Shown here: positions 6,266 through 61,378 of the stretch, piece after piece | Layout: each line of letters starts with the position of its first letter | Position numbering within the stretch: the first letter of the stretch is position 1 | Assembly: GCA_965198005.1 (NCBI GenBank) | Contig: CBDAOI010000002.1 | Coordinates: 64,001-128,000, forward strand | Direction of reading: 5' to 3' | Origin: Spirochaetia bacterium | Lineage (GTDB): Bacteria > Spirochaetota > Spirochaetia > SZUA-6 > Bin103 | DNA: 64,000 nt | Translations under genes and position numbers: made by a program | Notes under the pieces: generated by a model | The model's input: only the letters and a program-made list of their open reading frames with translations | The model's database searches: none | Told to the model about the DNA's origin: nothing

Positions 6266-6401
6266 ACTTCGTGTCGGTCGCGGTCTTCCCACATAGCTGT
6301 GCCGCTCGCACAACGGCTGCTGCTCGTGGTCACTTGATGCCATCATATTTGACACACCCGGCGAGACCACCTACCCTTGCAGAGACGAGGACCGGATTCT
6401 G

Positions 6402-7420: not shown

Positions 7421-7484
7421 TCAGCACGGGCCACGGAGAGGTATCGCCGGTTTCGTTGCTCGTGGTTTGGCGCCCCCGTGTCGG

Positions 7485-8455: not shown

Positions 8456-9411
8456 TGGTAGCGAATCCTCGGGTCGAGGTAAGCGTACAGCAGGTCGATG
8501 AGCAGGTTGGCGAACAGGATGAAGGTGGCAATGAAGAGGTTGATGCCCGAGACCATCGGATAGTCACGCAACGACAGCGCCTGGACGAGCAGCGACCCCA
8601 GGCCGGGCAGGTTGAACAGCGTCTCGATGATGACCGAACCACCCACCAGGATCGGCAACTGCAGCCCGATGAGCGTCACCACCGGAATGAGCGCGTTCTT
8701 CATCGCGTGGCGGACGACGACCAGCCGCTCGCGTAGGCCCTTGGCCCACGCCGTGCGCACGTAGTCCTGCCGCAGCACTTCCAGCATCATGGTGCGCGTC
8801 ATCCGCATCGTGGCGGCAGAGAGGCCGGTGCCCAGGATCAGGCCGGGGATGATGAACATGCCGACGTGGGCCAGCGGATCCTCGCTGAAGTCGAACAGTC
8901 GCAGCGGTGGCGTCCAACCCCACCAGATGCCGGGAAAGATGAGGACCATGAGGGCCAGCCAGAAGTTGGGCGTGGCCAGCCCGAAGATGGCGGCACTGCG
9001 GCCCGCGTAATCGCCCAGGGTGTCCTGACGCACCGCCGAGTAGATGCCCACCGGCAGCGCGATTAACAGGCCGATGAGCAGCGCGGCGCCCCCCAGCTCC
9101 AGGGTGACGGGCACTCGGTCGAGGATCTTGATCTCCACGGGCTTGTGACCCCGGAGCAGGGATTCACCAAGCGTCCCGTGCAACAGGATCCCCGACACCC
9201 AGCGCGCGTAAGCGATGTGCGCTGGGACGTTCAGCCCCAGCCTCTCGCGAAACCGCTCCCTGTCAACCTCGGTCGCGCCATACTGAGGGTCGTTCAGCAA
9301 GATGTCGACAAAATCGCCGGGGAGCAGGCGTACCGACAGGAACACCAGCATGCTCACGATGAACAGCGTGGGGATGAACAGCAGCAGCCGGCGGATGACG
9401 TAGGTTCGCAC
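8452..9411 (-). CDS. DppB/OppB-type ABC permease
   Basis: EAA-loop region MLEVLRQDYVRTAWAKGLRER..HAMKNALIPVVT, ends YLDPRIRY; GTG start at 9411. Confidence 0.92.
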   Translation of the reverse strand: MRTYVIRRLLLFIPTLFIVSMLVFLSVRLLPGDFVDILLNDPQYGATEVDRERFRERLGLNVPAHIAYARWVSGILLHGTLGESLLRGHKPVEIKILDRVPVTLELGGAALLIGLLIALPVGIYSAVRQDTLGDYAGRSAAIFGLATPNFWLALMVLIFPGIWWGWTPPLRLFDFSEDPLAHVGMFIIPGLILGTGLSAATMRMTRTMMLEVLRQDYVRTAWAKGLRERLVVVRHAMKNALIPVVTLIGLQLPILVGGSVIIETLFNLPGLGSLLVQALSLRDYPMVSGINLFIATFILFANLLIDLLYAYLDPRIRYQ

Positions 9412-9475
9412 GCGAGAAGGAAGGCCTGGGGCCACGCAGGCCGACCCCAGGCGCAAAAAGGCAAAGACGAGCTAG

Positions 9476-38148: not shown

Positions 38149-38222
38149 TGGGCCTGGCTAGAATTGAACTAGCGACCTCACGCTTATCAGGCGTGCGCTC
38201 TGACCAACTGAGCTACAGGCCC
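38149..38222 (-). tRNA. tRNA-Ile (GAT), CCA not encoded
   Basis: GGGCCTGTAGCTCAGTTGGTCAGAGCGCACGCCT-GAT-AAGCGTGAGGTCGCTAGTTCAATTCTAGCCAGGCCCA folds as a cloverleaf. Confidence 0.97.
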
Positions 38223-45089: not shown

Positions 45090-46616
45090 TCATTCAAGCG
45101 GAAGCTCTTGCGGCGCGACAACGTAGCGTACCGGGCTCTTCTCCTTCACCAACGTGCGTTCATCAACGAGGCGCTTCAACCATGGGCCCAAAGTCGTCGC
45201 GGATATCTCCAGCTCGTCGGCGATTGTATTGCGGTCTCTTGGTTCCACGCAAATGCTCTGCACGTAAGAACCGACCTCTCGATAGAGAAGTTCGGCGTAG
45301 GAACTACCCCGATATTGAACTGACGGAGCCGACTCCAAAATCACATCCGACTTCGCTTCGTCGTCCTGCGGTGAGATAACGTAGGTCTCTCTACCAAGCT
45401 TCTCCACGGCTCCGCCAGCGGCAAGCCGCTTCAGCCAGGTATTGGCCATGGTCTTGGGGACTCCCAACTCGGCGGCAACATGCTCGGCCTTCTGAGGTTC
45501 GGCACAGATGCGCGTGACGTACGACTCGACGTCTCGAAGGAGAAGTCGCGCGTAGTCCTGCGGCTGGGGCAATGCATCGGCCGGCGCGGAGATGGGTTCC
45601 GGGCTCGTCGCGCCAATCTCCGGTCCCACGGAGCGTTCGACCTCGCCAGTCGCCGGTTCATGCACAGAGACGACGCGACCAAGAATCTCCTCGATCCCAT
45701 CCGCGTCTTTCGGTTCTGGCCACGGGCGTGCGCCACGATCTTGCAGAGCCTCAAGGCCCGCGGAAGGATCGCCGCTCGAACGCACGAAGACGGGCACGGG
45801 GTACTTTTTCAACTGCTCGACGGCCCCGGACCACGTGCCCCCTCGGTTGAAGTCCGCGTTCACCACCAGACCCGCTTCCGCCAGTGCATAGATCACCTTG
45901 TTGCGCTGCATCGCCTGCGCGACCGTGAATCTCAGGCTCGGGTCGAATGGAGAAACCAGTACGAGCCGCTCTTCCAGCATCAGGTTGCGATGCTCGCGGT
46001 TCATGACCGTCCTCTCCAAGTCTCCGGGCAGCACTCCTACGACGCGGCCACCGGCCTCCAAAGCACCGTTCATGGCGGCCCGATCAACGCCTCTGGCACC
46101 ACCCGAGACCACGGTCAACCCGGCGCCGGCGACCAGCGCTGCAGTTTCCCGCGTGTACTCGATGAGTGGATCAGTAACGTCGCGCGATCCGACAATCGCG
46201 AAGCTCCGGGTATGCATGATCTCTTGCAGTCCACACCCGTAAAGCACGCTCGGCGCATCGTTCTTCAAACGCTGCTTGAGCAACGGTGGGTAGGCTGCAT
46301 CGGCGCGGCTCACGACCCAGATCCCTCGCGTCTGCCAACGCTCCACCGCCTGGCTCAGCAGGAATCCTCGGTTCAGCAATGCTCTCAGGCGAGTCTCGTC
46401 GATCACCTCGCCGCATTGCGCGAGGAGCCGATCAGCCCCCGACTCCAGCAGGTTGGCCGGCTCGGACTGGAGCGATGCCAGACAAGGGGCCAGCTTCCGG
46501 TACTCGCCGGCGGTAAGGATTTGCGCTCGTGGCCCGCGGTTGCCGACGACCAGGGGAGCGGTGAGCAGCAGGATCGCCATGGTGTTGGCGGACAGGCCAT
46601 CGGCCCCGTTCATCAT
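45090..46616 (-). CDS. DprA/SMF-domain protein (RqlI-like) with two C-terminal wHTH repeats
   Basis: APSVLYGCG, AIVGSR, VSGGARGVD, AMQRNKVIYAL, GGTWSGA; follows the RecQ-like gene. Confidence 0.88.
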   Translation of the reverse strand: MMNGADGLSANTMAILLLTAPLVVGNRGPRAQILTAGEYRKLAPCLASLQSEPANLLESGADRLLAQCGEVIDETRLRALLNRGFLLSQAVERWQTRGIWVVSRADAAYPPLLKQRLKNDAPSVLYGCGLQEIMHTRSFAIVGSRDVTDPLIEYTRETAALVAGAGLTVVSGGARGVDRAAMNGALEAGGRVVGVLPGDLERTVMNREHRNLMLEERLVLVSPFDPSLRFTVAQAMQRNKVIYALAEAGLVVNADFNRGGTWSGAVEQLKKYPVPVFVRSSGDPSAGLEALQDRGARPWPEPKDADGIEEILGRVVSVHEPATGEVERSVGPEIGATSPEPISAPADALPQPQDYARLLLRDVESYVTRICAEPQKAEHVAAELGVPKTMANTWLKRLAAGGAVEKLGRETYVISPQDDEAKSDVILESAPSVQYRGSSYAELLYREVGSYVQSICVEPRDRNTIADELEISATTLGPWLKRLVDERTLVKEKSPVRYVVAPQELPLE

Positions 46617-46683
46617 CTCGTGTCTCGTCCGAAAGTGCCGGCAATCGGCGATGCCTGTATCTCGACTATCATCGTCTTCCGTG

Positions 46684-48759
46684 TCATGAAGTGGCGCTGC
46701 TGCCTCCTGCATCAGCCAGGGCCAGGGGCCACACTTCCCCACTGCCGCGGCGCCGAAGCTCCCAGGCGACCACGGTGAAGGTCCAGCGCGAGTCTACCAT
46801 GTCATCTACCAACAGCACGGGCCCGGGAAGCATCTGACGCCGGTCGACCACCAGCGATCCGATAACATTGCGCGCCTGCTTGTCGCTGTTCTCCATCGTC
46901 TTCTGCTCCGGTCGCTCCTCCTTCCGCTCGAGCACCGCTTGAAACGGAAGTTCAAGCGCATGGGCCAGCCGTCTGGCAAAGTCAGGCACCAGATGCGGAC
47001 GCCGGTGCGAGGGCACGGCGGCAACCCAGGTGGGATACGGGGCAGGCTGCCACTTCCGAACCAGGGCCGCGCAGGCGTCCACGAGCTCCTCGGCGAAATG
47101 ATCGTCTCGGTACTTTCCGTCCGCTACCAGGCGGCCCCAGCCGGCATCTCCCCAGACGCACAATGCCATTCCCGGCTGCGCACGATGTTCACGCTCGATC
47201 CACTTGCCGGTTGGCCATTGCTTGCGCGGAACGATCGGCAGGTTCTCGTTGCGGAGGAAGGTGATGGCGTCCCTGACGCTGGCCGGATGCACGGTTGTCG
47301 GCAGGTGGGGCACCTCGGGCGGTCGAAAATCGCCCGGGTCGCCGTCCAGCGACCGGATGAGAAACTCCATGTGGTCGGAGGAGAGATCCACGTACTGCTG
47401 CATCTGTTGCTGCTCTGCCTGCCTGAGTTCGGTGAGCCGTTCCGTCCGCTGCCAGAACGCCTCGCTCAGTCTGGCCGCCGTGAGCTGCCACTTCGTGCCG
47501 AACGTCGCTATTGGCGCGGGTGACTCGAGCGCGAGGAGCTGGATCGTCTTCCGTATGCGCCCGTAGCCGAGGTTGACTTCGGCTGCGATCTCGCGAATCG
47601 ACAGACCCTCCGGGGCGGCCTCCAACGCGTCGAGGACGGCCGCGACCTGATCGCGATTGGGGAATGCGCTCGCTATGAAGTAGTTCGTGATGTCGGTTTC
47701 TTCGGTACCGCTCAGCAGCACGCCGTAGGCCGCATCGAGCGCGCGACCCGCGCGCCCCACCTGTTGATAGTAGGCCACGACCGAGCCTGGCGTCTGGTAG
47801 TGGATGACGAATGCGAGGTCCGGTTTGTCGAAGCCCATCCCCAATGCCGTCGTCGCGACCAGCGCTTTCACCTTGTTGTCAAGGAGAGCCTGCTCCAGTT
47901 CGGGCCGGCGCTCACCTGACTTGCCGGTGTATGCCTCGGCCTCGATGCCGCGCGTCCTGAGCCATCGGGCCACCTGCTCGGCGTCGCGGATCGTGAGGGT
48001 ATAGACGATTCCGCTTCCCGGCAGGTCCAGCAGCAGGTCGGACAGCCACGCGAGCCTTTCCGCCTGACTGGGCAGGCGCATTGTCTGCAGCGCCAGCGAA
48101 GGACGCGCCAAGTCGCCGCGGGAAACCGTCAAGTTCGGGCCAAGGATCTTCTGCAGGTCCTCCATGACCCGATTGTTGGCGGTTGCGGTGGTAGCCAGCA
48201 GACGAAGATTCGGAGGCAAAACGCGGAGGGTGCGTTCGATCCGTCGGTAGTCAGGACGGAAGTCATGCCCCCAGTCGGAGATGCAGTGCGCTTCGTCGAC
48301 GACGAGGAGCGAGACCCGACTGCCGATTTGAGACAACACCTGGTTATTGAAGCGCTCGTTGGCAAAGCGTTCCGGCGCGATGAGGACGATGTCCACCTCG
48401 CCACGGCGTATCGCCGCCTCCACATCCCGCCAGCGCTCCGCATTGTCGGAATTGATGGTCTCGGCCCGCACGCCCATCCGCTCTGCTGCCGAGATCTGGT
48501 TCCGCATCAGTGCGAGCAGTGGGCTGACGAGCAACGCCGGTCCCATGCCGGCCTCGCGCAACAGCTTGGTCGCGATGAAGTAGACGAAGCTCTTCCCCCA
48601 ACCCGTCTTCTGCACCACCAGAAGCCGCCGGCTGCCCTGGAAGACGTGGCGGATCGCTTCTTCCTGGCCTGCCCGAAACCGCGCTCGCGGATCGCCCACC
48701 CCCGCTCGCAGCAGCGCCAGGGCCCGTGCCGAAGAAAAACTCCCTGGTGTCTGTTTCAT
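46684..48759 (-). CDS. RecQ-like helicase with C-terminal phosphoribosyltransferase domain (RqlH-like)
   Basis: QKTGWGKS, DEAHCISDWGHDFRPDY, TATA, ALGMGFDKPD, YYQQVGRAGR; PRT motif VLLVDDMVDSRWT. Confidence 0.92.
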   Translation of the reverse strand: MKQTPGSFSSARALALLRAGVGDPRARFRAGQEEAIRHVFQGSRRLLVVQKTGWGKSFVYFIATKLLREAGMGPALLVSPLLALMRNQISAAERMGVRAETINSDNAERWRDVEAAIRRGEVDIVLIAPERFANERFNNQVLSQIGSRVSLLVVDEAHCISDWGHDFRPDYRRIERTLRVLPPNLRLLATTATANNRVMEDLQKILGPNLTVSRGDLARPSLALQTMRLPSQAERLAWLSDLLLDLPGSGIVYTLTIRDAEQVARWLRTRGIEAEAYTGKSGERRPELEQALLDNKVKALVATTALGMGFDKPDLAFVIHYQTPGSVVAYYQQVGRAGRALDAAYGVLLSGTEETDITNYFIASAFPNRDQVAAVLDALEAAPEGLSIREIAAEVNLGYGRIRKTIQLLALESPAPIATFGTKWQLTAARLSEAFWQRTERLTELRQAEQQQMQQYVDLSSDHMEFLIRSLDGDPGDFRPPEVPHLPTTVHPASVRDAITFLRNENLPIVPRKQWPTGKWIEREHRAQPGMALCVWGDAGWGRLVADGKYRDDHFAEELVDACAALVRKWQPAPYPTWVAAVPSHRRPHLVPDFARRLAHALELPFQAVLERKEERPEQKTMENSDKQARNVIGSLVVDRRQMLPGPVLLVDDMVDSRWTFTVVAWELRRRGSGEVWPLALADAGGSSATS

Positions 48760-48966
48760 GATCCGCGCGCCACTGTTCGCTCGACGTGTCGAGTGCCCTC
48801 TCCCAAAACAAGGTGTAGATGATGCCCAGACACGGGTCAATCCCGTTGATCGCTCCACGAGCTTGTCTCCAGCGCCATCGTTACGGACTACCTTCGCACT
48901 CGCTCGCAGGGCGCGAGCCGGGAACAACAAGCCGGCACCACGGCCATGAACGAAGTCCCTCCCGGT

Positions 48967-51900
48967 TCACGATGACGCGGAGATGCTCAGTATCTCCAGC
49001 GCCTCCTTGCGGTCCAGGTGCGGGTGGGCGAACTGATTTCGATAGCTGCGCAAGCAGCCGTAGCAACTCGAATCGCATCCGCACGCGCCGCTCACACGGT
49101 CCCGAGCGTGCCGGAGCACCGCCGCGAACACCTCTTCGCGCTCCAGTTGAGCAACCAAGCCAGCGCCACCGGGGACGTTGTCGTAGAGCACTATCGACGC
49201 GGTTGTCGATGCCACCGCCGCGGTCGCGTCGACGCCTGCGATCGTGACATTCAGGTCGGTGTCCGGCACCCCCAACCGTTCGGCTGCTCCCAACAGGAGT
49301 GCGTAACCCACGGAATAGGCCATCCACTCGCCGTTCAGGTGGGGCACCTGCAGCCGCACCACGTCCGTAACCAGCTCGTGCCCAAGCGAGAAGTGCCGCA
49401 GCGTACCGGAGCACGGGGTATCCCACGGAGTTCGGTGTTCATGCTCCTGTTCGGTGAGGTGGCTCCCGCACGTGAGACAGATATAGAATCCCTGCCGGTT
49501 ATGCCCCTCGCAGAGAACGACGAGCGTACCGGGCAGCGCCTTCGTCACCTCGATGCCGAACAGTTTCCTCGTCTCCAGACGGACGTCACCGCCGAATCCC
49601 TTGAAGAACGGGCGAGTCGTATACAGCCGGCGCACCCGGCCGCGCGGCTCTTTCGGCTGCTGAAACAGCGCCGTAACGAACCCGAACTGCGGGATGAGAT
49701 ATTGCCTCATCCCCGGTGGCCGCGGTCCGCTGTCCTCGATCTGGGTGAAGTTCCGCGCCTCATTGTAATCGTAGTATGGCGTCTGTAGCGCCTTGCCGGG
49801 TACGATCTTGACTCCGACCGATTCCCACTCCCGCTTGTCCGCTATCACCTTGCCGCCGGGCGCGTACTCGGCGATCGCCTGTGACAGATCCCTCTGCAAC
49901 GCCACTCCGGTGGACTCCCGCGATTGGCCGCTCCGGGTGTCGAGCTCCACCACGTCTACCGGAAATCCATACTTCGGGATGGCCGCCTTGCGCGACAGGA
50001 AGCTCAGGGTCTGCTCTTCCGCAATGGTCCTCATACGACGCTCGATGTGGCCGACTTTAGTCGTCCAGCCTTTCGGCTGCTCCCGTATCAGGACCTCCTT
50101 CGCCTCCTGCATGGCACGATAGTCCGCGCACACCTCCAGTTCGACTTCGGCAAGGCGACTTTCCGGTCCCGCGACGTGATCGACCCACCCGCCGCTGGTC
50201 AATCCGGTGGCTGGGTGCATCGGCTCAGGCACAATGCGCTTCAATGCCGACTGCAGCGCGGCGTTGCCATGGCAGAAACGCTTCAGTTCGGAGACCGCAT
50301 CCGGGGCCTGCCAGTCGCCGACGAACTGCTGTACGTTGATGAAGCGGCCGCCCTTCCCCAGGTCCCTGAAAAACGCCGACAAAGCGGTGGCCGCCATGTG
50401 CCGTACGACGATTTTCGTATTCGTCACCTGCAGACGCGGCGGCTGCAATGGACTGTTGATTATGCGTTCGCACGGTTTCTCGTAGTGATAGAGATCGTGT
50501 GGATTGCGGCGGCAGTAAGTAACGGCGAAGCCTGGAGTCTCGCTGCGACCAGCGCGTCCAACGCGCTGCGTGTAGTTGAATGGCTCCGGCGGTACGTTGC
50601 GCACGAACACCGCCTCCAGATCGCCGATATCGACTCCCACCTCGAACGTAGTTGACGAACTGAGCAGGTGGATGTCTCCGTTTTTGAACCGCTCCTGACG
50701 CTGCCGCGCTTCATCGCTTGCGATCTGCGCCGTGTGTTCTTCGGCATGCAGCGTCGGGGGCAACGACGCGCTCTCGTAGAGGATGCGGTAGTGGTTGTTG
50801 CTTAGCCGCCGTTGGTCGGCTACACGCAACCTGCCGGGACAACGGTTTCTCGGACAAACGGCGCGAATACTGTGCAGGCTGATGCTTGCGCACGTGTCGC
50901 ACTCCCAAATCTCGTCGGATCGAGTAAGTGCGATGCGCAGCCAGCGCGAGTTGAGACGAAACGTGCCATTGGCGCTTCCCCGGGACAAGAGCTGGTCGGC
51001 GGGGCGCGAGTTGCCGTCGCGTGTTCGTAAGACGCTCCACGCCTGCCTCATGAGCCGGATGGACACCGACCGCTTGTCTTCATCGGACAACCCGCTGTCA
51101 GACAGAAGCCGATGCAGGAAATGCGCTACGACAGCCGACGCCGCGGAGCCCCACTGCCTCACGTTGCGACGTCTCCCCGGTGCCCCGATACCGTACGACG
51201 CCTGCGGCCAGGGCGAGACGTCGTTCCAGGCCGGCGCGCCGGCCTCTGCAGGCAGCGCCAACGCGCCGCGCAGACGAAGCTCGTCGAGGAGATATGCAAG
51301 AAGTCCGCGAGTGTCTTGCTCGGACAGACTCCAGGGCGGCATTCGTGCTACCTCCGGCAGCGCTACGTCATCGGGAATCTCGACGCTCCACTTGAGCAGT
51401 CCGACCCCGCTCAACGACAGCCGGCGCTCGTCGGTCAACGCTTCGCTGAGAATCGACTCCAACACCCTTCGCCGTCTACCTTCGGCGGTATCAGAAGCGC
51501 TGAACAGCCCCGCATGATCCCATTGGCTGAGCAATCGGGATCTGAGGTCGTCGATGGACAGCCCCTCGGGAGCGATCGCGCCTTGTTGCAGAGCGCGCAG
51601 CATGAGATTGCGATCGCGCAGCTTGCCGTAGGAGTCCTCGGCGTACCAGGCGAAGAATGCCGCTTCCTGACGGCTGTCCGCAAACGCCAACAGCTTGCGC
51701 CCAGTTTCCGGCAGCAACTCGTGCAGAGCGGTGGCGATGACCGCGTTCGGGCCGTCCGAGCCGTGCACGATCTCCTGCACCGGATCTCCCACGCCGCCAC
51801 GCCGATAGCCACAGGTCGCGCACTCCTTCAATTGATCGGGTTGCTCCTTGTGGGACGCACACTTCGCAACGTGGAGCGCAGCCGGAGCGCCGCAGGTACA

Positions 51901-53253
51901 CCCCGGCGTGGCACTCGCGGCGGCGGACAGGCGGCCGCAACGGCGACACAGTACGTGCGATGCACCAGCACTCGACTCCAACGGCCGATAGTACTCGACT
52001 CCGAAGCCCGGCTGGCTCGGGTCCCGCACCGCCTCCTCCAGCCTGCCGTGACGCTCACGGCCGACGTAATAGTGCTGACCGCATTCGCGACACAGCGCGA
52101 TCTCCAGCGGCACGGATCCGGTCCCGTTGGCCAACTCCCCCTTGCGGTTGAGAACCACTGCGTCCCGGCCCTCGCGGTGAACGAGGAACGCACCTTCCAA
52201 CGCGCGCAGGAACGTATGATACCGCCGCGGCGACCGCTGATCGCCCGGCCGCGACGAGCCGAAGATGACGCCGGACGGCGAAAACGATTCTCCGAACAGC
52301 TCCGCAGCGAATTTCGCCACGGCGGTCTTGTCGTCTTCTCCCTCGCCGGAGGACAGCGTTGCGCTGGTGGCGATGCACCGGAATGGCTCGCTACGCCCGC
52401 CGGTGGTCAGGCGCTGCTTCAGGCGCCGAATCAATATGCCCATCTCCATGCCCTTGGCGCCCCGGTACTGATGCGCCTCGTCCAAGACGATGAACTGCCA
52501 GCGCGTGCCGCGCCCGCCATCGAACAGCGGGCTGTCGTCGGGCCGAATCAGCAGGTACTCGAGCATCGAGTAGTTGGTCAGCAGGATATGCGGCGGCGTG
52601 ATCCGCATCTCTTCCCGGAAGATCAACTCCCCGGTGAGTCGTTCTTGCTCTCGATCCGCCGCGTTGCGCCACGTGTCGCTTCTGCTCTTGGGTGTCTGGC
52701 CGGTGTATTGTCCAAAGGTCGGACGAAAATCCGACCCGGCGATGCTCAGCGATTTCGCTATCTCACCGAGGCGTTCCCGTTGATCGTTGGCGAGCGCATT
52801 CATCGGATAGAGAATCATCGCACGCACGCCCGGTTGACCCAGCTCGCCCGCGAGATGCTGTCGGTACAGCTCGAACAGAATCGGGTAGAGAAAGCTCTCC
52901 GTCTTGCCGCTTGCGGTACCGGTCGCGACCACGACGTTCCGCCGCTCGCCGTAAGCAGCCCGAACCGCGCGCTCCTGGTGTACGTACAGCGGCCCGTGCC
53001 TCAGTCCCGGAAGCAGCCGGTCCGCCATGCCTGGAAAACACTGTCGCGCCAACTCGTGTGCCTCCGCACCGTGCTCGAATCCGCGATCGGGTTCGGGATA
53101 CGGCCCCTTCAGCAGACTCCCCTCCTTCCCAAGAGCGGACTCGAAGGAATCCCGCAGCGCGCGATCTTTGAAGAAGAATGATGTCTTCAGGTAATTCTCG
53201 TAGCGACTTCGAATGGTGTCAGTCCACCGTTCGACGTGTTCTGCTTTGGGCAC
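48967..53253 (-). CDS. Large SF2 DEAD/DEAH helicase with C-terminal DUF1998 (DruE/DpdJ/DrmB/MrfA-related)
   Basis: TGTASGKT, YPMNALANDQ, TNYSMLEYLL, DEAH, TSAT, TFEVGVDIG, QRVGRAGR, DNVPGGAG, CGCDSSCYGCL. Confidence 0.93.
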   Translation of the reverse strand: MPKAEHVERWTDTIRSRYENYLKTSFFFKDRALRDSFESALGKEGSLLKGPYPEPDRGFEHGAEAHELARQCFPGMADRLLPGLRHGPLYVHQERAVRAAYGERRNVVVATGTASGKTESFLYPILFELYRQHLAGELGQPGVRAMILYPMNALANDQRERLGEIAKSLSIAGSDFRPTFGQYTGQTPKSRSDTWRNAADREQERLTGELIFREEMRITPPHILLTNYSMLEYLLIRPDDSPLFDGGRGTRWQFIVLDEAHQYRGAKGMEMGILIRRLKQRLTTGGRSEPFRCIATSATLSSGEGEDDKTAVAKFAAELFGESFSPSGVIFGSSRPGDQRSPRRYHTFLRALEGAFLVHREGRDAVVLNRKGELANGTGSVPLEIALCRECGQHYYVGRERHGRLEEAVRDPSQPGFGVEYYRPLESSAGASHVLCRRCGRLSAAASATPGCTCGAPAALHVAKCASHKEQPDQLKECATCGYRRGGVGDPVQEIVHGSDGPNAVIATALHELLPETGRKLLAFADSRQEAAFFAWYAEDSYGKLRDRNLMLRALQQGAIAPEGLSIDDLRSRLLSQWDHAGLFSASDTAEGRRRRVLESILSEALTDERRLSLSGVGLLKWSVEIPDDVALPEVARMPPWSLSEQDTRGLLAYLLDELRLRGALALPAEAGAPAWNDVSPWPQASYGIGAPGRRRNVRQWGSAASAVVAHFLHRLLSDSGLSDEDKRSVSIRLMRQAWSVLRTRDGNSRPADQLLSRGSANGTFRLNSRWLRIALTRSDEIWECDTCASISLHSIRAVCPRNRCPGRLRVADQRRLSNNHYRILYESASLPPTLHAEEHTAQIASDEARQRQERFKNGDIHLLSSSTTFEVGVDIGDLEAVFVRNVPPEPFNYTQRVGRAGRSETPGFAVTYCRRNPHDLYHYEKPCERIINSPLQPPRLQVTNTKIVVRHMAATALSAFFRDLGKGGRFINVQQFVGDWQAPDAVSELKRFCHGNAALQSALKRIVPEPMHPATGLTSGGWVDHVAGPESRLAEVELEVCADYRAMQEAKEVLIREQPKGWTTKVGHIERRMRTIAEEQTLSFLSRKAAIPKYGFPVDVVELDTRSGQSRESTGVALQRDLSQAIAEYAPGGKVIADKREWESVGVKIVPGKALQTPYYDYNEARNFTQIEDSGPRPPGMRQYLIPQFGFVTALFQQPKEPRGRVRRLYTTRPFFKGFGGDVRLETRKLFGIEVTKALPGTLVVLCEGHNRQGFYICLTCGSHLTEQEHEHRTPWDTPCSGTLRHFSLGHELVTDVVRLQVPHLNGEWMAYSVGYALLLGAAERLGVPDTDLNVTIAGVDATAAVASTTASIVLYDNVPGGAGLVAQLEREEVFAAVLRHARDRVSGACGCDSSCYGCLRSYRNQFAHPHLDRKEALEILSISASS

Positions 53254-55441
53254 GTCGTTGTATCCCCCTTAGTGCATCGATATTGAAACCGTACGCGGTA
53301 TGGCGCCGCCAGTCGATAGGAATATCCACCTGCTTCGCAGCGGCAGCCGTCAGCCCTGCGGCGTGGATCTCGCGCAAACTGAATCCCCTTCCGGGCCGCC
53401 TGCCGCGCCCATGCGTGTGCGTGACGTAGGCACGCAATCGACCGATCTTCAGCGGAGAAAACACGGTTACTTCTGCGTGTTGTGTCACCTTCTCGCCAGT
53501 CATCACCACATCCGGATGCGCATGGAACGAGACAATCTCTGGAACAGCATCAGCGATGACACGGACCAGTGGCACAATGGATGAGCCGCATCGAGCATGC
53601 AATAGAGCATCCTCGTGCAACCAGCTATCGATCTGCGAATCGTCCGCGAAGTCGATGAGAGGAAGCTGTACCGTGCGAATCAAGTCCTCTGTCTGTATTG
53701 AGCGATAGCTTCTGGTCAAGTCATGATCGAATCCCACGTCTACGGCATTGATCTCCCGTGGTAGACGGATCCGAACCACAGAGTCGGAGTTGGCGTGGTC
53801 ACGAAACTCACTGCGCGTCATCGCCAGCCGTGTCGCGCACCAGGGTGCTGATTCCTCTCCTTCGTGCCCAAGACACCACCAAATCCTCGGTAACCTGATC
53901 ACCACCTCGACACTGCCCGATGGAGTCTCTAGCGAGCAGGCAACCTCGTCGGCAGCCGGATACGGAGCCACCATCACGGCCGCTTCCTCTTCCACCCATC
54001 GTTGGTGGGAACCTGGTCTCAACGAGGGCCGAATGGCTGCGCCCTTCACCCCCACGAACTGCACCTTGGTCGGAGTATGGCCTTCTATCGCTGGCGCCAG
54101 CAGCGTTTCCCCGGTGTAGGGTCTACCATTTACGAGGATCTCGCGGAGGCCCTCGACGTAGCGGAATTCGCCATTGTCGCACAGCTTCGTATCGCTGTCG
54201 TACACGCGCACAAAAAAGCGTCCCTGACGTTGATCCAGCACGTCCGCCAACGGGCGTTCCGCGGGCAGGAAGCTTTCCCCGCGCCAGCCGCCATCCTTCT
54301 CTTCGCCGACGCGCGCCCAAGTGACTCCGCGCCCCGGTCTCAGTTCCGGAGGCCTGCCAATGAACAGTCCGCCTTCGGTCGAGTCGTCGTAGAGTCGCTC
54401 GCCGATCAGCGAGAAGCCCGCGCGGGTCAGCTCCAAGTCGCACTCCTCGAAGCCAACGCCGTCCGCTGACGGGTCGCCGTTGCGAAAGAAGTAGTGCGCC
54501 TGGAACGCAGGATCGGCGCTCGCCTCCGGTGCGACCGGCGCGCGCCCCCTGCGGTTCCATCCTGTCGGTGCTATCACGATGAAGTGACCGCGACTGACGG
54601 CGTCGATTCTCCGACCGACACCGCTCCACCTGTCGGCCAACTTGAAGATCATCGGCGCTCGCGCGGTGCATAACGGAAGCTCGGTTGCACTGCCGTCCGC
54701 ATGATCGACGGAGAGAACCCCCGCAAAGGATGAAAGGCGGTACTCGGCCCGTTCCGCGCGTAGGCGGGTGTCGTCGAGCCGAACGCCGGTTACATTGCAT
54801 TCGTCGGGCGCCGACAAGACTACCCCCCATTGCCATGACCCGGGCGCCTTTCGGCATATCAACTCCGGTAGGGCAGGAGGCGGGGCTGGGCGGTTCGCTG
54901 CCCTCGGGACGGCGACCGCAGCGCGCACGCCCCGCCGTGCGCCGTGCCTGCGCGGTGGCCGACGCGGTGTTGTCGCACTACCGCGAGAAGGTTCCGGACC
55001 GTGCTCCGCAGGCTGTTGGGCGATGCGTTGGCCAATTTCTAGCTTGCGGAAGTCCGGCCCGACCAATCGCCTGTCGAGAGTGAAAACGGTCGTCACACCG
55101 AGCTGAGACATCAGCGCGCGGCTGGTTCGGGGGATCAGAGCACCCAGATCGCGCTTGCCCCGGGTAAGGGCTCGGGCATGAAGCCCGGAATCGACCGTCA
55201 GAACCGTCACGCGCGGTTTCAGCTCGGCGAGGAACGCCCGCGCTTTGTCGAATCCGAGCCGTGCCTGCACGAGCGCCAGCAACTCCGCGCACACGTAGCT
55301 GGAAGTGATCAGCGGAGCCCCGGAGCGCAACAATTCGTCCCAGGCCGAACCAACCTGAGCATGCGCCTCATGGGTCGGGTCAAGCAGCGCGTAAAACGCT
55401 GTCGTGTCGATGAATATGGCGTTTCCGTCGGAGCGCTCCAT
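53219..55441 (-). CDS. Multidomain protein: PIN domain, beta-rich middle region, C-terminal eL13 (L13e)-like motif
   Basis: IFIDTTAFYALLD..AEL..FTLD (PIN); RPGRGFSLREIHAAGL..IPIDWRRHT..NIDAL (eL13-like); overlaps the helicase start. Confidence 0.75.
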   Translation of the reverse strand: MERSDGNAIFIDTTAFYALLDPTHEAHAQVGSAWDELLRSGAPLITSSYVCAELLALVQARLGFDKARAFLAELKPRVTVLTVDSGLHARALTRGKRDLGALIPRTSRALMSQLGVTTVFTLDRRLVGPDFRKLEIGQRIAQQPAEHGPEPSRGSATTPRRPPRRHGARRGVRAAVAVPRAANRPAPPPALPELICRKAPGSWQWGVVLSAPDECNVTGVRLDDTRLRAERAEYRLSSFAGVLSVDHADGSATELPLCTARAPMIFKLADRWSGVGRRIDAVSRGHFIVIAPTGWNRRGRAPVAPEASADPAFQAHYFFRNGDPSADGVGFEECDLELTRAGFSLIGERLYDDSTEGGLFIGRPPELRPGRGVTWARVGEEKDGGWRGESFLPAERPLADVLDQRQGRFFVRVYDSDTKLCDNGEFRYVEGLREILVNGRPYTGETLLAPAIEGHTPTKVQFVGVKGAAIRPSLRPGSHQRWVEEEAAVMVAPYPAADEVACSLETPSGSVEVVIRLPRIWWCLGHEGEESAPWCATRLAMTRSEFRDHANSDSVVRIRLPREINAVDVGFDHDLTRSYRSIQTEDLIRTVQLPLIDFADDSQIDSWLHEDALLHARCGSSIVPLVRVIADAVPEIVSFHAHPDVVMTGEKVTQHAEVTVFSPLKIGRLRAYVTHTHGRGRRPGRGFSLREIHAAGLTAAAAKQVDIPIDWRRHTAYGFNIDALRGIQRRAQSRTRRTVD

Positions 55442-55612
55442 AGGAATCCGAAACTGCCGTGATAATACACGACTGGGCACACGTCTTACCATAAGCGGTG
55501 TGCCGGTTGCGGCTCGCATCCAGCGCGGTACTCGGGGCTGCGCGGCCCCGAAGGCCGGTATCTGCGCCCAGCCGGTGGCGGGCACGCAGCAGACGTTCAG
55601 AAACGGCCGGCT

Positions 55613-57697
55613 TCACCGCTGAGGCAGGCTAGGTCGCACCGCGTCCAGAACCACTTCAAGACACTGGTCCAGGTCGCGTGATAGTTCGCGGACGCTGAAG
55701 CGCGTCACCTGCCACCCCTCGGCCTCGATGGCTCGGTCCCGGTTGGAACTCGCTCCCGGTTTCCGAGGAAAGGCAGCCCCATCGCACTCGACGTCCAGTC
55801 GAACCTCCCCGTCTTCGACAGCGACGTCGAGTCGGTGCCCCGCCACCACTGCGCCCGTTCTGGCGGGAACGCCACGGCGCAGAAGCGCCTCGAACAATTC
55901 CATCGCGACCGGACTGTCGAAACCGCTCGCTTCGATCCTGGTCACGTAGCCCGCCAAGCGCCTCAGTACGGTCTCATGTGCGATCCACGCTTCGATGTCT
56001 CCAATGATGACCAGGCGACGGCGCGCACGCGTCAGAGCGACGTTGATCAGATTCCGGTCGGACACTTGCCGGACCACAGCCTCGGCCTCGGCGCGATTGA
56101 TCCGGCTCCGCCCGCGCGGACCGCGGGCGGCCTGTCCCGCAACTCGTACCCACTCGATGGCACGCAAGCCGGCGGGTGGCTTCCGGTCGCTGCACAGCTC
56201 CATGTTCCCGTCGTAGAACTCGGTATTGGCGAAGCCGATGATGGCCGGATGCGACCGGAAGTGCAGGTCGAGGAACAGGGGCGGCGCCACGATCCGCGCC
56301 ACCGCCAAGTCGAAACAGCTATGGTAGCGGTAGCTGAACGCTTCGGCGCGCTCCTCCGCCAAGCCCCATCTCCGCGCAATGAGCCGCTCACGCGCGTGGC
56401 TGAGCGTAGTGACGTGAATCAGTTGTCGCTGATCGCCAATGATCAGCGCACGCTCCGCACGCACGAGCAACGGTAGCGCGGACGCCACGTCGCACTGTGA
56501 CGCCTCGTCTATCACCACCAGATCGAACAGCCCGGGTTGCAGCGGCAGATTGGTGCGAGCGGAAAGATTCGTCACCTGCGACCTCCTCCCTGAGAGCGGC
56601 GCCCCCGGCTCGCACGACGATCCCGTGCGGGGAGGTCTCGCGCAGCCGATCGACCACGACATCCACCGCCTTGTTGTTCTTCGACGCCAGCAGCACGGTC
56701 TCGCCGCGGCATACGGCGGCGGCTACGACATTCACCAGCACCTGCGACTTTCCGGTCCCGGGCGGGCCGGTTACCACCGTGAACTGGTTCGTCATCGCAG
56801 CGTGCACCGCGTGATCCTGCGCCAGGGAGGAGGGTACGAGCGTCGGATGCGCCTCCGGGAGCGGCGGTTCCGCAACCGAACCGGTACCCAACAACACGGC
56901 GGCCGGGCCACGCCGCAGCAGCTCCGGCCGATTCGCCAGTTCGTGCAGGTCGACGACAAGGTTCCGCACGAATGGCAGGCGGCCTGACGTTGCCATCAAA
57001 CCTCCGGGCTCTCATCCACCGCTTTCACGAATGCCTCACGCTCATCCCGAGCGAAACCGAGAAGATCAAGCGCGAAGGGATTGAGCTCCACGAACTCACC
57101 GGGGCGTTGGCAACGCCATGTTCCGTGTTGGAACTGTAGTCGCACCTCGGTGAGCAGCAACGGGGATGCGGCGATGTCACCCGGTCCCGAGGACGTGCAC
57201 CCCACGATGAGCGGCCAGCCGGCTATCTGCGTCTCGCCCACAGCCCGTGCGCGCCGCTCGCACCAGTCGCGGCTGTCCGGATCATCGGATACCGAGATCG
57301 AGGCATGGAACGGGCTCTTGCGGCCGGCGAGCTCGATATGATCGCGACTGCCGGGAACCAAGCGCAGCGAGCCGGCGGCTTCCGCTTCTACGCAATCGCG
57401 AAAGAATCCGACCAGGGCGACCAACTCGTCCTCAGGTGGTTTGTTCCGGTCGACCATCGTCTGCCGCGCGTGGATTTCAGGGGCGCCGTTGAACATGCGC
57501 ACCTTGCCCTGGACGCGAACCTGATCGCCGGATTGCGGAGCCAGGCCGGCCTCCCACCACACGACCGTCAGCTCATCGTCGCCTTGCGCGCGTAGCGTCG
57601 CCTTCACCGCCGGGCCGTTCCCGGTCGCGAAAGTCCGTCGCCTGCCTACCTTGCCCACCACGTCGACCGATTGTCCCTCTGTCAGGGGGTGCTGCAT
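55613..57697 (-). pseudogene. OB-fold plus SF1 (AAA_11/AAA_12, Upf1/DNA2-like) helicase plus DUF559/Vsr-like nuclease, fragmented
   Basis: Three frames: OB-like N-terminus; GPPGTGKS..SKNNKAVD; DEASQ, GDQRQL, HFRSHP, NVALTRAR, DVECDG..GWQVTRF. The motif V region is missing. Confidence 0.85.
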
Positions 57698-57896
57698 CAC
57701 TTCGTCTCCACGTCGGGTGGCCGGGGCCACACCATGCCACGCTACCGCGGACGTGATCGCGCGAACCGATCGGCGTGATAGTATAGAATACTTGGCATAA
57801 TGGCCCTCCCGGCGGCCGATCGCCCTGCCGTCTGCCGGGCCCGACGCAGGAGCCCGCCCGATAACTGATCTCCCGCGCGGCAAGGAGCAGGTTGAA

Positions 57897-58106
57897 ATGG
57901 AGTACACGGCTATCGTCAAACGTAGCGGAGAGTGGTGGATCGGCTGGATCGAGGAAGTGCCCGGCGTCAACTGCCAGGAACGCACTCACGAGGAGCTCCG
58001 CAAGAGCCTCGCCGAAGCCCTCTCCGAAGCCCTGGAATTCAATCGTCGCGAGGCTCGCGCCGCTGCAGGTGACAACTACCGCGAGGAAAAAGTCGCCGTG
58101 GCATGA
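57897..58106 (+). CDS. hicB: HicB family antitoxin
   Basis: YTAIVKRSGEWWIGWIEEVPGVNCQERT. Confidence 0.9.
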   Translation: MEYTAIVKRSGEWWIGWIEEVPGVNCQERTHEELRKSLAEALSEALEFNRREARAAAGDNYREEKVAVA

Positions 58107-58291
58107 AGCGGATCCAATTGCTGAAGCATCTTCGGCAGAGTGGGTGCAAATTGATTCGGGAAGGAAGAAGACATTCGTGGTGGTGCAACAACCGTGGGGA
58201 CCGACGCTCCGCGATCCCCAGGCATAGAGAGATCGATGACACGCTGGCTCGGAAGATCTGCAGGGATCTCGGCGTAGAACCGGTCAAGTAG
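58103..58291 (+). CDS. hicA: HicA family toxin
   Basis: LIREGRRHSWW..AIPRHREID..ARKICRDL; ATGA overlap with hicB. Confidence 0.9.
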   Translation: MKRIQLLKHLRQSGCKLIREGRRHSWWCNNRGDRRSAIPRHREIDDTLARKICRDLGVEPVK

Positions 58292-58360: not shown

Positions 58361-61300
58361 GTGGAGCAGCGGTTCTTCGAACAACCGATCCTCAACTCGC
58401 CGTACGAGTACCCCGCCCGGCACTGGGAGCTGGACGCGAACCGGCAGCCCACCAACCGCATCGTGGAGCGCCGCCGCACGGTGTCGTTCATCACGCCGAT
58501 CCCCGCCGCCCGCAAGCGGCGTGCGAAGCAGCAGGAGATGGTGTTCGACCAGGCTGCCAGGGCGCTGGCGACCGACGGCCAGCAATACGACCTGACCGCC
58601 ATCATCGAGAGCGTGCGCCACAGCGTCGGCGAATGGCGCAGGCTGCCCCGCGCCCAGTGGCGGGTCACCCCCGAGACCGCGCGCCTGCTGGAACACTGGC
58701 GGCACCACCAGTTCAGCGACATCCGTCCGTTCTTCTGTCAGGTCGAAGCGGTCGAGACCGTGATCTGGCTGACCGAGGTGGCCCCCGGCCCCGGACGCGA
58801 GGGGCGGCAGTTCGTGCAGCGCCTGGAGGCGGCCAACGAGGAGGCCAATCCCGGCCTCGCCCGGCTGGCGCTCAAGCTCGCCACCGGCGCCGGCAAGACC
58901 ACCGTAATGGCGATGCTGATCGCGTGGCAGACCATCAACGCCGTGCGCCATCCGGGCAGCCGCCGCTTCACGCGCGGCTTCCTGGTGGTGACCCCCGGCC
59001 TCACCATCCGCGACCGGCTGCGGGTGCTGCAGCCCAACGACCCGGACAGCTACTACCAGAGCCGCGAGCTGGTGCCGCGCGACCTGCTCGGCGACCTGAA
59101 CCGGGCCAAGATCGTCATCACCAACTACCACGCCTTCATGCCGCGGGAGACGCAGGAGATCTCGCGCGGCGGGCGCGCCCTGCTGCAGGGCCGCGGCCCC
59201 GAGCTGCGCACGCTGGAGTCCGAGGGTCAGATGCTGCAGCGCGTCATGCCCGGCCTGATGGGCATGAAGCAGATCATGGCGTTCAACGACGAGGCCCACC
59301 ACTGCTACCGCGAGCAGCCGGACAAGGAGAGCGACGAGGCCAAGCTCACGGGCGACGACCGCGAGGAGGCCAAGAAGAACAGCGAAGCCGCGCGGGTATG
59401 GATCTCCGGCCTGGAGGTGGTACAGCGCAAGCTGGGGCTGAGCCGGGCGATCGATCTCTCGGCCACGCCGTTCTTTCTGCGCGGCTCCGGCTACGCGGAG
59501 GGCACCCTGTTCCCCTGGACGATGAGCGACTTCTCGCTGATGGACGCGATCGAGTGCGGCATCGTCAAACTGCCGCGCGTGCCGGTGGCCGACAACATCC
59601 CCGGCGCCGACATGCCCAAGTTCCGCAACCTGTGGGAGCACATCGGCAAGCGCATGCCCCGCAAGGGGCGCGCCAAGTCCGTGGCGCTCGACCCGCTGAG
59701 CATTCCCGTCGAGCTGCAGACCGCCCTCGAAGCCCTCTACGGCCACTACGTGAAGATCTTCGACCAGTGGCGCGAAGCCGGCATCGAGGTGCCGCCCTGC
59801 TTCATCGTGGTGTGCAACAACACGTCAACCTCGAAACTGGTCTACGACTACATTTCCGGGTTCCAGCGCCAGCATGAGGACGGCTCCTCGTCGCTGGAGA
59901 ACGGACGGCTGGAACTGTTCCGCAACTTCGACGACTACGGCAACCCGCTCGCCAGACCGCACACCCTGCTGATCGACAGCGAACAGCTCGACTCCGGGGA
60001 AGCGCTCGGCAGGGACTTCCGGGTGGCCGCGACCGATGAGATCGAGCGCTTTCGCCGGGAGATCATCGAACGCACCGGCGACCGCCGCCAAGCCGAGAGC
60101 CTTTCCGACCACGACCTGCTGCGCGAAGTGATGAACACCGTCGGCGTCGCGGGCCGGCTCGGGGGCGCCACCCGCTGCGTGGTATCGGTGTCGATGCTCA
60201 CCGAGGGCTGGGACGCGCGCACCGTCACCCACATCCTCGGCGTGCGCGCCTTCGGCACGCAGCTTCTGTGCGAGCAGGTCGTCGGCCGCGCCCTGCGCCG
60301 CCAGTCCTACGATCTGAATGAAGAGGATCTGTTCGACGTCGAGTATGCCGACGTGCTCGGCATCCCGTTCGACTTCACCGCCGAGCCGGTGGTGGCCAAA
60401 CAGCCGAAGCCACGCGAGACCGTACCGGTCAGGGCGATCACCCCGGATCGGGATGCGTGCGAGATTCGGTTCCCGCGCGTCCAGGGCTACCGCGTCGAAC
60501 TGCCCGAAGAGCACGTGGACGCAACGTTCGACGACGACTCGACCCTCGTGCTCACCCCGGAGATCGTCGGTCCTTCCATCACCCACAACGCCGGGATCAT
60601 CGGCCAGGGCGTCGACCTGAACCTGATCCACCGCCGGGATCTGCGCCTTTCCACGCTGGTCTACCATCTCACCAAGACCCTGCTGGAGAAACACTGGCGC
60701 GACCCGGAACAGAACCCGAAGCTGCACCTGTTCGGCCAGCTCAAGCGGGTCACGCGCCGCTGGCTGGACGATCACCTGGTCTGCAAGGGCGGCACCTACC
60801 CCGCGCAGCTCATGTACCAGGAGCTGGCGGATCAAGCCTGCACCCGCATCACGCGCGCCATCGTGGCGCGGCATCTCGGCGACCGCGCAGTCACGGCCGT
60901 GCTCGACCCCTACAACCCGACCGGCTCCACCATCCACGTCAACTTCACCACCTCGAAGCGGACCCGCTGGCAAACCGACGCGCGCCGCTGCCACGTCAAC
61001 TGGGTAGTCTGCGACAGCGACTGGGAGGCCGAATTCTGCCGCTTCGTCGAGTCGCAGCCGTCGGTACGCGCCTACGTCAAGAACCACGGTTTGGGGCTGG
61101 AGGTCCCCTACCGGTACGGCTCCGAGGCGCGCACCTACCTCCCCGACTTCATCGTGCTCGTCGATGACGGCCACGACGACGACGACCTGCTCCACCTCGT
61201 GGTCGAGATCAAGGGCTACCGCCGCGAGGACGCCAAGGAGAAAAAAGCGACCATGGAGACCTACTGGGTACCAGGCGTGAACCGCTCCGGCGCCTACGGC

Positions 61301-61378
61301 CGCTGGGCCTTCGCCGAGTTCACCGACGTGTATACGATCCAGGAAGATTTCCTGCGTGCGGTCGGGAAGAGCCAGTGA
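58361..61378 (+). CDS. Type III restriction Res subunit-like helicase-endonuclease (BPTD_3080-like family)
   Basis: PILNSPY, LATGAGKT, NDEAHHCY, SATP, MLTEGWD, QVVGRALRR, nuclease motif YLPDF..EIKG. Confidence 0.9.
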   Translation: MEQRFFEQPILNSPYEYPARHWELDANRQPTNRIVERRRTVSFITPIPAARKRRAKQQEMVFDQAARALATDGQQYDLTAIIESVRHSVGEWRRLPRAQWRVTPETARLLEHWRHHQFSDIRPFFCQVEAVETVIWLTEVAPGPGREGRQFVQRLEAANEEANPGLARLALKLATGAGKTTVMAMLIAWQTINAVRHPGSRRFTRGFLVVTPGLTIRDRLRVLQPNDPDSYYQSRELVPRDLLGDLNRAKIVITNYHAFMPRETQEISRGGRALLQGRGPELRTLESEGQMLQRVMPGLMGMKQIMAFNDEAHHCYREQPDKESDEAKLTGDDREEAKKNSEAARVWISGLEVVQRKLGLSRAIDLSATPFFLRGSGYAEGTLFPWTMSDFSLMDAIECGIVKLPRVPVADNIPGADMPKFRNLWEHIGKRMPRKGRAKSVALDPLSIPVELQTALEALYGHYVKIFDQWREAGIEVPPCFIVVCNNTSTSKLVYDYISGFQRQHEDGSSSLENGRLELFRNFDDYGNPLARPHTLLIDSEQLDSGEALGRDFRVAATDEIERFRREIIERTGDRRQAESLSDHDLLREVMNTVGVAGRLGGATRCVVSVSMLTEGWDARTVTHILGVRAFGTQLLCEQVVGRALRRQSYDLNEEDLFDVEYADVLGIPFDFTAEPVVAKQPKPRETVPVRAITPDRDACEIRFPRVQGYRVELPEEHVDATFDDDSTLVLTPEIVGPSITHNAGIIGQGVDLNLIHRRDLRLSTLVYHLTKTLLEKHWRDPEQNPKLHLFGQLKRVTRRWLDDHLVCKGGTYPAQLMYQELADQACTRITRAIVARHLGDRAVTAVLDPYNPTGSTIHVNFTTSKRTRWQTDARRCHVNWVVCDSDWEAEFCRFVESQPSVRAYVKNHGLGLEVPYRYGSEARTYLPDFIVLVDDGHDDDDLLHLVVEIKGYRREDAKEKKATMETYWVPGVNRSGAYGRWAFAEFTDVYTIQEDFLRAVGKSQ

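Follow-up and report, generated by a model that had tools for sequence, protein, structure and literature searches.

A domain homologous to the core of ribosomal protein eL13 at an exchangeable C-terminal position in the partner of a Druantia-type helicase

Druantia is among the most widespread of the anti-phage systems. Its mechanism is only starting to emerge, from a journal paper and preprints of 2025-2026, and the way in which it recognizes infection is a matter of dispute. The subject here is a pair of genes, laid out like Druantia type III, from a Spirochaetia bacterium (GenBank assembly GCA_965198005.1, contig CBDAOI010000002.1, positions 64,001 to 128,000). That whole stretch of 64,000 nucleotides (nt) is called the window, and all coordinates given below are positions within it. 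One gene of the pair, P0002, encodes a DruE-like helicase. The other, P0001, encodes a partner protein that is unrelated in sequence to the known partner of DruE and that ends in a domain homologous to the core of eL13 (L13e), a ribosomal protein of archaea and eukaryotes.

The partner of DruE in canonical Druantia type III, DruH, is described as binding single-stranded DNA at the interface between its immunoglobulin-like (Ig) domain Ig5 and its C-terminal domain (10.64898/2026.05.12.722862) and as a 3'-5' exonuclease (10.64898/2026.05.13.724313). Another preprint reports that DruH and DruE, regarded as sensor and effector, evolve at different rates, the sensor faster (10.64898/2026.05.12.724681). 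Finally, there is a compact branch, 'III-B' or 'type III-like', in which DruE usually lacks nuclease domains (10.64898/2026.05.12.722862, 10.64898/2026.05.12.724681, 10.64898/2026.05.12.724758, 10.64898/2026.05.13.724313, 10.1101/2025.09.15.676423).

The helicase of the window (48967..53253, minus strand, 1428 amino acids [aa]) is of the YprA/MrfA type. Its best matches in PADLOC are DruE3 (E 2.3e-153) and DruE1 (E 2.6e-151), and Pfam recognizes DEAD, Helicase_C and MZB (DUF1998) domains in it, the zinc domain MZB occupying residues 1316-1401. The helicase motifs and the MZB cysteines are readable in the sequence. The protein ends with MZB, and Pfam finds no C-terminal nuclease (PLD) domain of the kind that DruE of subtype III-A has. 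In this, as in layout, it resembles DruE of the compact III-B branch. It is shorter than the DruE of E. coli, which has about 2100 aa, and is 36% identical to it in RecA1. The partner gene lies upstream on the same strand, and its stop codon sits 35 nt inside the helicase gene. The two thus form a co-oriented, overlapping operon in which the partner precedes a large helicase with DEAD, Helicase_C and MZB domains, as they do in Druantia III. The earlier note on this DNA, made from the sequence alone, had placed the partner gene in a defence island, which holds good; it had not recognized the DruE-like helicase as the gene's immediate partner.

The linkage of the two genes extends well beyond the window. 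When prokaryotic genomes were scanned, one for each species, 24 loci came up (L001-L024), all of them in metagenome-assembled genomes that belong, by the titles of their records, to no fewer than 10 phyla or classes: Latescibacterota, Acidobacteriota, Verrucomicrobiota, Binatia, Rhodothermales, Chloroflexota, Gammaproteobacteria and Alphaproteobacteria, Spirochaetota, and Gemmatimonadota. Directly downstream of the partner, tblastn finds DruE-like sequence in 23 of these loci (near full length in 19, cut by the end of the contig in one, partial in one and fragmentary in two), and in the last locus the contig ends at the partner gene. No other neighbor of the pair in the window has a tblastn match in the related loci (L001-L024, L033 and L034). 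A larger conserved operon that takes in the downstream genes for a DEAD helicase and a DprA-like protein, the broken helicase gene upstream, or the type III restriction gene is thereby excluded, and since none of these neighbors recurs, the conserved unit is the gene pair. Across the loci, identity to the proteins of the window is 49-70% for the helicase and only 29-47% for the partner, which is the faster-evolving of the two, a further likeness to Druantia III.

Some copies of the cassette seem to be on their way out. In two loci (L014 and L021), the DruE-like gene is fragmented or interrupted with the frame of the partner still open, and these cassettes appear to be decaying. Also, one protein of 788 aa (P0007) joins the first 620 or so residues of a partner to the C-terminal part of a DruE-like protein, with its MZB domain. 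Either a large deletion within the cassette or an artefact of assembly or gene calling would account for this.

Is the partner a form of DruH? At the level of sequence it is not. The family profile was compared with DruH of E. coli ATCC 8739 (1119 aa, 'STY4851/ECs_5259 family', YjiT), and hhalign returned a probability of 0.15%; the best BLASTP match had an E-value of 0.038, and no PADLOC model matched the partner of the window even at E <= 10. Homology with DruH was rejected on these grounds. The two proteins may yet share the fold of their Ig chains, the PDB sets that were searched having yielded no structure of DruH. In both, the N-terminal head varies and is followed by a chain of Ig-like domains and then by a small domain at the C-terminus. 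They differ at the ends: in the family described here, a PIN domain or an acidic disordered region forms the head, where DruH has a helical nuclease domain, and the tail of P0001 is an eL13 core, not the helical C-terminal domain of DruH.

The frame of P0001 runs on the minus strand from an ATG at 55441 to a stop codon at 53219-53221 and encodes 740 residues; the earlier note had delimited it at exactly 53219..55441. An alternative GTG start at 55585 is possible, and in the alignment of homologs the closest ones begin at the ATG. The AlphaFold2 model of the whole protein (predicted local distance difference test [pLDDT] 78.5) consists of a PIN fold (residues 1-122), a linker (123-182), an all-beta region from residue 190 to about 660, and the tail. 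The VapC-like PIN domain, as delimited by Pfam and by alignment with VapC26, comprises residues 9-126 (55064..55417). The linker that follows (residues 127-184, 54890..55063) is rich in Pro and Arg and disordered, with pLDDT below 50 over residues 123-182, and it carries a conserved PRxxGxRR motif, whose P163 and R170 are nearly invariant in an alignment of 37 homologs.

The signature of the family is the conserved all-beta core (residues 190-640, 53522..54874), a chain of Ig-like beta-sandwiches made entirely of strands, with pLDDT mostly between 86 and 95. The long beta-rich middle that the earlier note had described is thus as modeled. In profile searches, no family of Pfam, NCBIfam or PADLOC covers this core. 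A search of the ESM Atlas with it was uninformative (best score 0.79), and Foldseek matched the whole model solely to generic Ig-chain proteins (complement C3/C5, titin, LILRB3) with template modeling (TM) scores of about 0.1. Next comes what is left of a PKD-like Ig domain (residues 641-666, 53444..53521, pLDDT 47-58), from which about 52 residues have been lost in frame, just before the tail, by comparison with the closest homologs. The domain is complete in P0004, P0006 and P0009, and several other members of the family have no PKD-like domain at all. The protein ends with the domain that resembles the eL13 core (residues 672-733, 53243..53428).

It is this tail that drew attention to the gene. 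The earlier note had quoted from it a peptide that it took to follow the eL13 pattern and that it placed at 53268-53405; the peptide corresponds to residues 682-724, encoded at about nt 53270-53398, which agrees with that placement to within two codons. The resemblance is real. Pfam assigns residues 674-714 to Ribosomal_L13e (PF01294) at E 5.4e-7 (30.1 bits; curated cut-off 24.9), over model positions 55-95 of 180 only. The NCBIfam model of archaeal L13e (PRK12277) matches residues 678-731 over positions 25-78 of 83 (E 3.7e-12), with a score of 45.7 bits, which falls short of the 96 bits set as the equivalog cut-off, as is to be expected of a domain. The tail does not span the full model of the eL13 family and is part of a multidomain protein of 740 aa, not a free small protein. 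A phmmer search of all PDB chains matches P0001 to dozens of eL13 chains, the best being yeast eL13 (E 1.8e-5). With a profile built from 37 homologs, the match to eL13 of Pyrobaculum calidifontis (9e6q_AH) reaches an E-value of 9e-12 in a gapless alignment of 50 residues, and that to yeast eL13 an E-value of 6e-9, with an insertion of four residues on the eukaryotic side.

The fold agrees. AlphaFold2 models the last 75 residues of P0001 (pLDDT 87.9) as a beta-hairpin with two short helices and one long one. When this model is compared with the PDB by Foldseek, all 50 of the matches listed are eL13 (E from 2.3e-5, TM 0.56-0.73, identities 25-41%), so that the structural comparison bears out the reading of the motif made from the letters. 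VIA-align against 48,161 representative chains places eL13 at ranks 1-8, with Z falling from 10.5 to 7.9, and gives the chain that follows a Z of 3.1; the best match, the archaeal eL13 of P. calidifontis, superimposes with a root-mean-square deviation of 1.7 A over 68 residues at 29% identity. Ten residues are invariant across the 37 aligned homologs (R682, G684, G686, F687, S688, E691, G696, D710, R713 and N720). These residues (R.G[RK]GFS..E....G, D.RR and N) are identical in the aligned Pyrobaculum eL13, and we take them to be hallmarks of eL13 in general. The E-values and the match in fold exclude a chance motif as the source of the resemblance: the C-terminal domain of P0001 (62 aa) is a genuine homolog of the eL13 core by both sequence and fold. 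It shares the core signature and the fold with ribosomal eL13 in its short archaeal form and differs from it in that the core alone is present, as the C-terminal domain of a 740-aa protein in a bacterial defence island.

To our knowledge, bacteria have no eL13. What, then, is its core doing here? The native ligand of eL13 is large-subunit ribosomal RNA (rRNA), and the eL13-like tail of P0001 has a net charge of +7 and an isoelectric point (pI) of 11.6. The explanation that we favor, and hold with moderate confidence, is that P0001 is an accessory, probably sensing, subunit of a two-gene anti-phage cassette similar to Druantia III and that its tail serves as a basic adaptor for nucleic acid. 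An archaeal-type eL13 core would have been captured as the C-terminal domain of the protein. The partner would recognize infection, its tail holding the sensor on structured RNA or on single-stranded nucleic acid that arises in the course of it, and the helicase, possibly with the PIN head in this clade, would then act on the nucleic acid so held. The target of the helicase would be phage DNA, and the eL13-like tail would play the part taken in DruH by the region of Ig5 and the C-terminal domain.

The eL13-like domain is not the only module found at this place. The family was sampled as 124 clusters at E <= 0.001, 120 of which are listed. By a hidden Markov model (HMM) of the tail, 90 of the 120 have the eL13-like domain, in every case at the very C-terminus, a share that may be inflated since the sample was drawn by shared words with P0001 from candidates capped at 8000. 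The motif singled out in the earlier note is thus conserved among homologs. Some of the other 30 clusters are truncated or frameshifted, and the rest carry other modules at the same place: Ribosomal_S17 in P0039 (104.9 bits over model positions 1-67 of 68), Ribosomal_S6 in P0078 (30.1 bits against a cut-off of 27, with weaker matches in three related clusters), the C-terminal repeat of NusA in P0111 (E 1.7e-7) and a MacB_PCD-like domain in P0104. In P0076 and P0119, NusB is inserted ahead of the eL13-like domain (96.6 and 74.5 bits). Both domains of ribosomal protein S5 occupy the position in L024 (E 5e-9 and 8e-11). Six groups of C-terminal modules have no family match at all; neither Pfam nor NCBIfam matches modules X1-X5 or a basic coiled-coil tail. 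These unmatched modules are for the most part basic. Extra modules were looked for in 10 longer members of the family, and nothing beyond L13e was found.

A tree of the core (FastTree, 128 rows, local support only) shows how these modules are distributed. Ninety-two rows carry the eL13-like domain and two more NusB together with it; replacement modules are present in 25, and 11 more are truncated or unclear. The alternatives are nested at many separate places, with 27 changes of label for 14 classes, where the minimum possible would be 13. The C-terminal position is an exchange slot at which eL13 has been replaced or supplemented by other modules. The eL13-like tail is the majority state and, because the alternatives are nested at so many separate places, probably the ancestral one.

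The N-terminal slot may be open to similar traffic. In L022, a frame at 6388-10461, whose start codon is provisional, opens with regions 2, 3 and 4 of sigma-70 (E about 1e-22 to 1e-25) and a stretch like region 1.2, and these precede the Ig core and a tail that is a degenerate form of the eL13-like domain. This end of the protein, therefore, also takes a domain of the transcription machinery.

The earlier note had suggested that the rRNA-binding fold was repurposed as an RNA sensor or as a module that docks on ribosomes. The strongly basic character of most of the modules and the presence of ribosomal and Nus proteins as substitutes at the same position favor a role connected with nucleic acid or with the machinery of gene expression. 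Fourteen of the 17 C-terminal modules, those similar to bS6 included, have a net positive charge and a pI of at least 9. Several observations weigh against our favored explanation. The NusA repeat is acidic (net charge -7) and is a protein-binding domain, not an RNA-binding one, and the MacB_PCD-like domain and module X2 are nearly neutral. A generic basic clamp for nucleic acid does not cover every variant, because of these three modules. In addition, P0001 itself has suffered the in-frame deletion in its PKD-like domain, and one catalytic Asp of its PIN domain finds no counterpart in the alignment. The choice of replacements is also not random. Those that can be identified come strikingly often from the machinery of transcription and translation, not from common folds that bind nucleic acid, and this hints at something more specific. 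Finally, the C-terminal helical domain of DruH contacts the stalk of DruE in the complex that DruE and DruH form, as solved by cryo-electron microscopy (10.64898/2026.05.13.724313).

Because of that contact, the tail of P0001 could play its role through protein: it could be a surface that binds the DruE-like helicase and have nothing to do with nucleic acid. This is improbable. The helicase is conserved, at 49-70% identity, and the tail has been swapped for unrelated folds in at least 12 lineages, which is hard to reconcile with a single interface; the conserved Ig-like core is a better candidate for contact with the helicase. When helicase residues 310-840 and partner residues 430-740 were modeled as a complex, the score was 0.00, which decides nothing in either direction.

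More can be made of the identity of the modules. Six of the eight types that are identifiable at either end belong to the machinery of transcription or translation (eL13, uS17, bS6, uS5, NusB and the NusA repeat). The sigma-70 of L022 is a seventh type from the machinery, and the only exceptions are PIN and the MacB_PCD-like domain. Perhaps, then, the eL13-like tail and its substitutes, sigma-70 among them, tether the sensor to ribosomes, to rRNA or to transcribing RNA polymerase. Stationed there, the system could keep watch on the gene-expression apparatus or intervene at it, for example on phage DNA undergoing transcription and translation, or it could be released when a phage remodels the apparatus. 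That eL13 has rRNA as its native ligand and that its signature residues are conserved throughout the family speak for such docking. Yet bacteria lack eL13, and nothing shows that bacterial 23S rRNA offers a site for it. With no more than 34% identity to the uS5 of its own genome, the uS5-like module of L024 would be poorly suited to displacing or mimicking that protein, and replacement modules are present in a minority of the rows of the tree, the 25 mentioned above, with 11 others truncated or unclear. Docking as the purpose of the tail is on balance doubtful.

Or perhaps the terminal modules imitate host factors that phages hijack, and a phage protein that binds or modifies the imitation sets off the system. 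Nus factors (used by antiterminators of the lambda type), sigma-70 (targeted by anti-sigma proteins) and ribosomal proteins (acted on by phage enzymes) would all be suitable bait. Canonical DruH has been argued to sense phage proteins (10.64898/2026.05.12.724681). The repeated independent exchange at the C-terminus (27 label changes against a minimum of 13) and the fast divergence of the partner are what one might expect of bait. Also, NusB and the C-terminal repeat of NusA are both protein-interaction targets of lambda N. The arrangement would resemble, in logic only, that of plant nucleotide-binding leucine-rich repeat (NLR) receptors with integrated decoys, immune scaffolds that have repeatedly gained terminal domains copied from host proteins. 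The scaffold and the kingdom are unrelated, and the module most often displayed, probably the ancestral one, fits the analogy badly: eL13 is not a protein of bacterial hosts and so cannot imitate a target in the host, which weakens this account and contradicts it for the eL13 module itself. The 34% identity of the uS5-like module in L024 to the genome's own uS5, which excludes recent copying of the host's ribosomal protein, is a second difficulty. We know of no phage trigger for the family. A role of the modules as bait is unlikely.

The two ideas can be put together in a broader statement, which we offer tentatively: that the family consists of immune sensors displaying, on an Ig-like scaffold, exchangeable copies of parts of the gene-expression machinery (eL13 core, uS17, bS6, uS5, NusB, NusA repeat and sigma-70), either for docking to the ribosome or RNA polymerase or as bait for phage factors. 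If so, the state of translation or transcription would be coupled to a Druantia-type helicase, and the family would be a prokaryotic counterpart of immune receptors with integrated domains, seeded by the gene for an archaeal ribosomal protein.

Returning to the adaptor for nucleic acid that we favor, the PIN head would be an addition peculiar to one clade. The earlier note had read the start of the protein as a VapC-like PIN domain, and Pfam concurs by a small margin (24.8 bits against a cut-off of 23.6, residues 9-126); VapC26 (5x3t) matches the N-terminal residues with an E-value of 8.4e-6. In the tree of the core, the PIN-bearing proteins form a single clade of 22 rows with support of 100, so placed that the head appears to be a derived feature of that clade, acquired late. 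Three residues, D12, E52 and D123, align with catalytic acids of VapC26, and at the position of the third Asp there is a proline, P104. Since one of the four acidic residues of the active site is unaligned, catalysis by this PIN domain is doubtful. D97, seven residues upstream of P104 and conserved within the PIN clade, might substitute for the missing Asp. The domain thus resembles VapC-type toxins such as VapC26 of M. tuberculosis over its 126 N-terminal residues and differs from them in three respects: it is fused to a large protein and not paired with a VapB antitoxin, it has Pro in place of the third catalytic Asp, and it occurs in only one clade of its family.

The unaligned catalytic residue, together with the loss of some 52 residues from the PKD-like domain and the frameshift in the helicase-nuclease gene upstream, raises the question of whether the gene in the window is a relic with no present role. 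The frame is open over 740 codons, however, and both genes of the pair are intact, with the helicase motifs and the MZB cysteines in place; moreover, other members of the family do without the PKD-like domain entirely. Decay of this copy is very improbable.

Where else does the eL13-like domain occur? A search of 1.84 billion proteins with the tail profile gave 1308 representatives at E <= 0.001. Among the best 150 of these, 101 contain the core of the family: an HMM detected it in 85 of 134 new sequences, and the other 16 were members already known. Thirty of the best 150 lack the core and have at most 150 aa. At least two of the thirty look like pieces broken off from members of the family, and the remaining short ones resemble, by eye, free lysine-rich L13e of the archaeal type; the library they come from carries no taxonomy. 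Five more are coreless C-terminal pieces in which a PKD-like stretch or a short low-complexity lead precedes the tail, and one (P0242) matches weakly, in many short stretches.

The other 13 of the best 150 have an architecture of their own, in which a short and basic helix at the N-terminus is followed by a long disordered region, very acidic and repetitive, and by the eL13-like tail (P0176, P0187, P0192, P0193, P0196, P0202, P0203, P0214, P0220, P0227, P0230, P0238 and P0248). The acidic region is 150-400 aa long, with repeats like EEYGLDLELL, and there is no Ig core. At the one locus examined for this architecture (L038:7719-8846), no DruE-like neighbor was found; the gene adjoins a DUF4145 gene, a hydrolase gene and an NmrA-like gene. 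In two further proteins, both short (P0236 and P0241), an N-terminal L13e is followed by repeats similar to helix-hairpin-helix, and these look by eye like fusions of archaeal L13e.

If the cassette serves in defence as proposed, the tail would be a clear case of an archaeal and eukaryotic ribosomal protein domain recruited into bacterial immunity, and its ligand would show what this branch of Druantia senses. A natural experiment is at hand, in which the same type of helicase is joined by a sequence-unrelated partner with a repeatedly exchanged terminal domain, and the set of small modules (eL13 core, uS17, bS6, uS5, NusB and NusA repeat) makes a common ligand directly testable. A literature search found no paper that links L13e with Druantia or phage defence, nor one that links integrated decoys with ribosomal proteins in anti-phage systems. 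What is new is a Druantia-type helicase with an undescribed family of partners, and the slot for domains of the transcription and translation machinery is the feature most worth following.

The family is thinly spread among close relatives of the bacterium. Among 40 related genomes, there is one full-length homolog and one fragmentary one. PF01294 was found in one of 92 genomes of the order, that of the window itself, and in none of 14 control genomes; that genome contains no second strong eL13-like copy. Such a patchy distribution is usual for mobile defence genes.

The surroundings of P0001 are a defence island, and the G+C fraction drops from 0.68-0.745 over 20-44 kb to 0.60-0.675 over 44-64 kb. 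Directly downstream of the helicase gene, on the same minus strand (45090-48930), lie a gene for a DEAD/ResIII helicase (748 aa) and, overlapping it, one that combines DprA/SLOG with a TrmB-like winged helix-turn-helix (550 aa). These may be a separate defence pair. Directly upstream of P0001, also on the minus strand, is a helicase gene of the Dna2/NAM7 type (AAA_11, AAA_12) with a REase_MTES_1575/DUF559 end, in two overlapping frames (55613-56999 and 56996-57985) and so apparently frameshifted; an ORF encoding an OB-fold precedes it. Further on, on the plus strand, there is a gene similar to Res of type III restriction systems (ResIII and RE_endonuc, 58361-61378). Two small overlapping ORFs on the plus strand (57897-58291; 69 and 62 aa) resemble by eye a HicB/HicA antitoxin-toxin pair. 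The sole tRNA gene of the window, for tRNA-Ile, is at 38149-38222.

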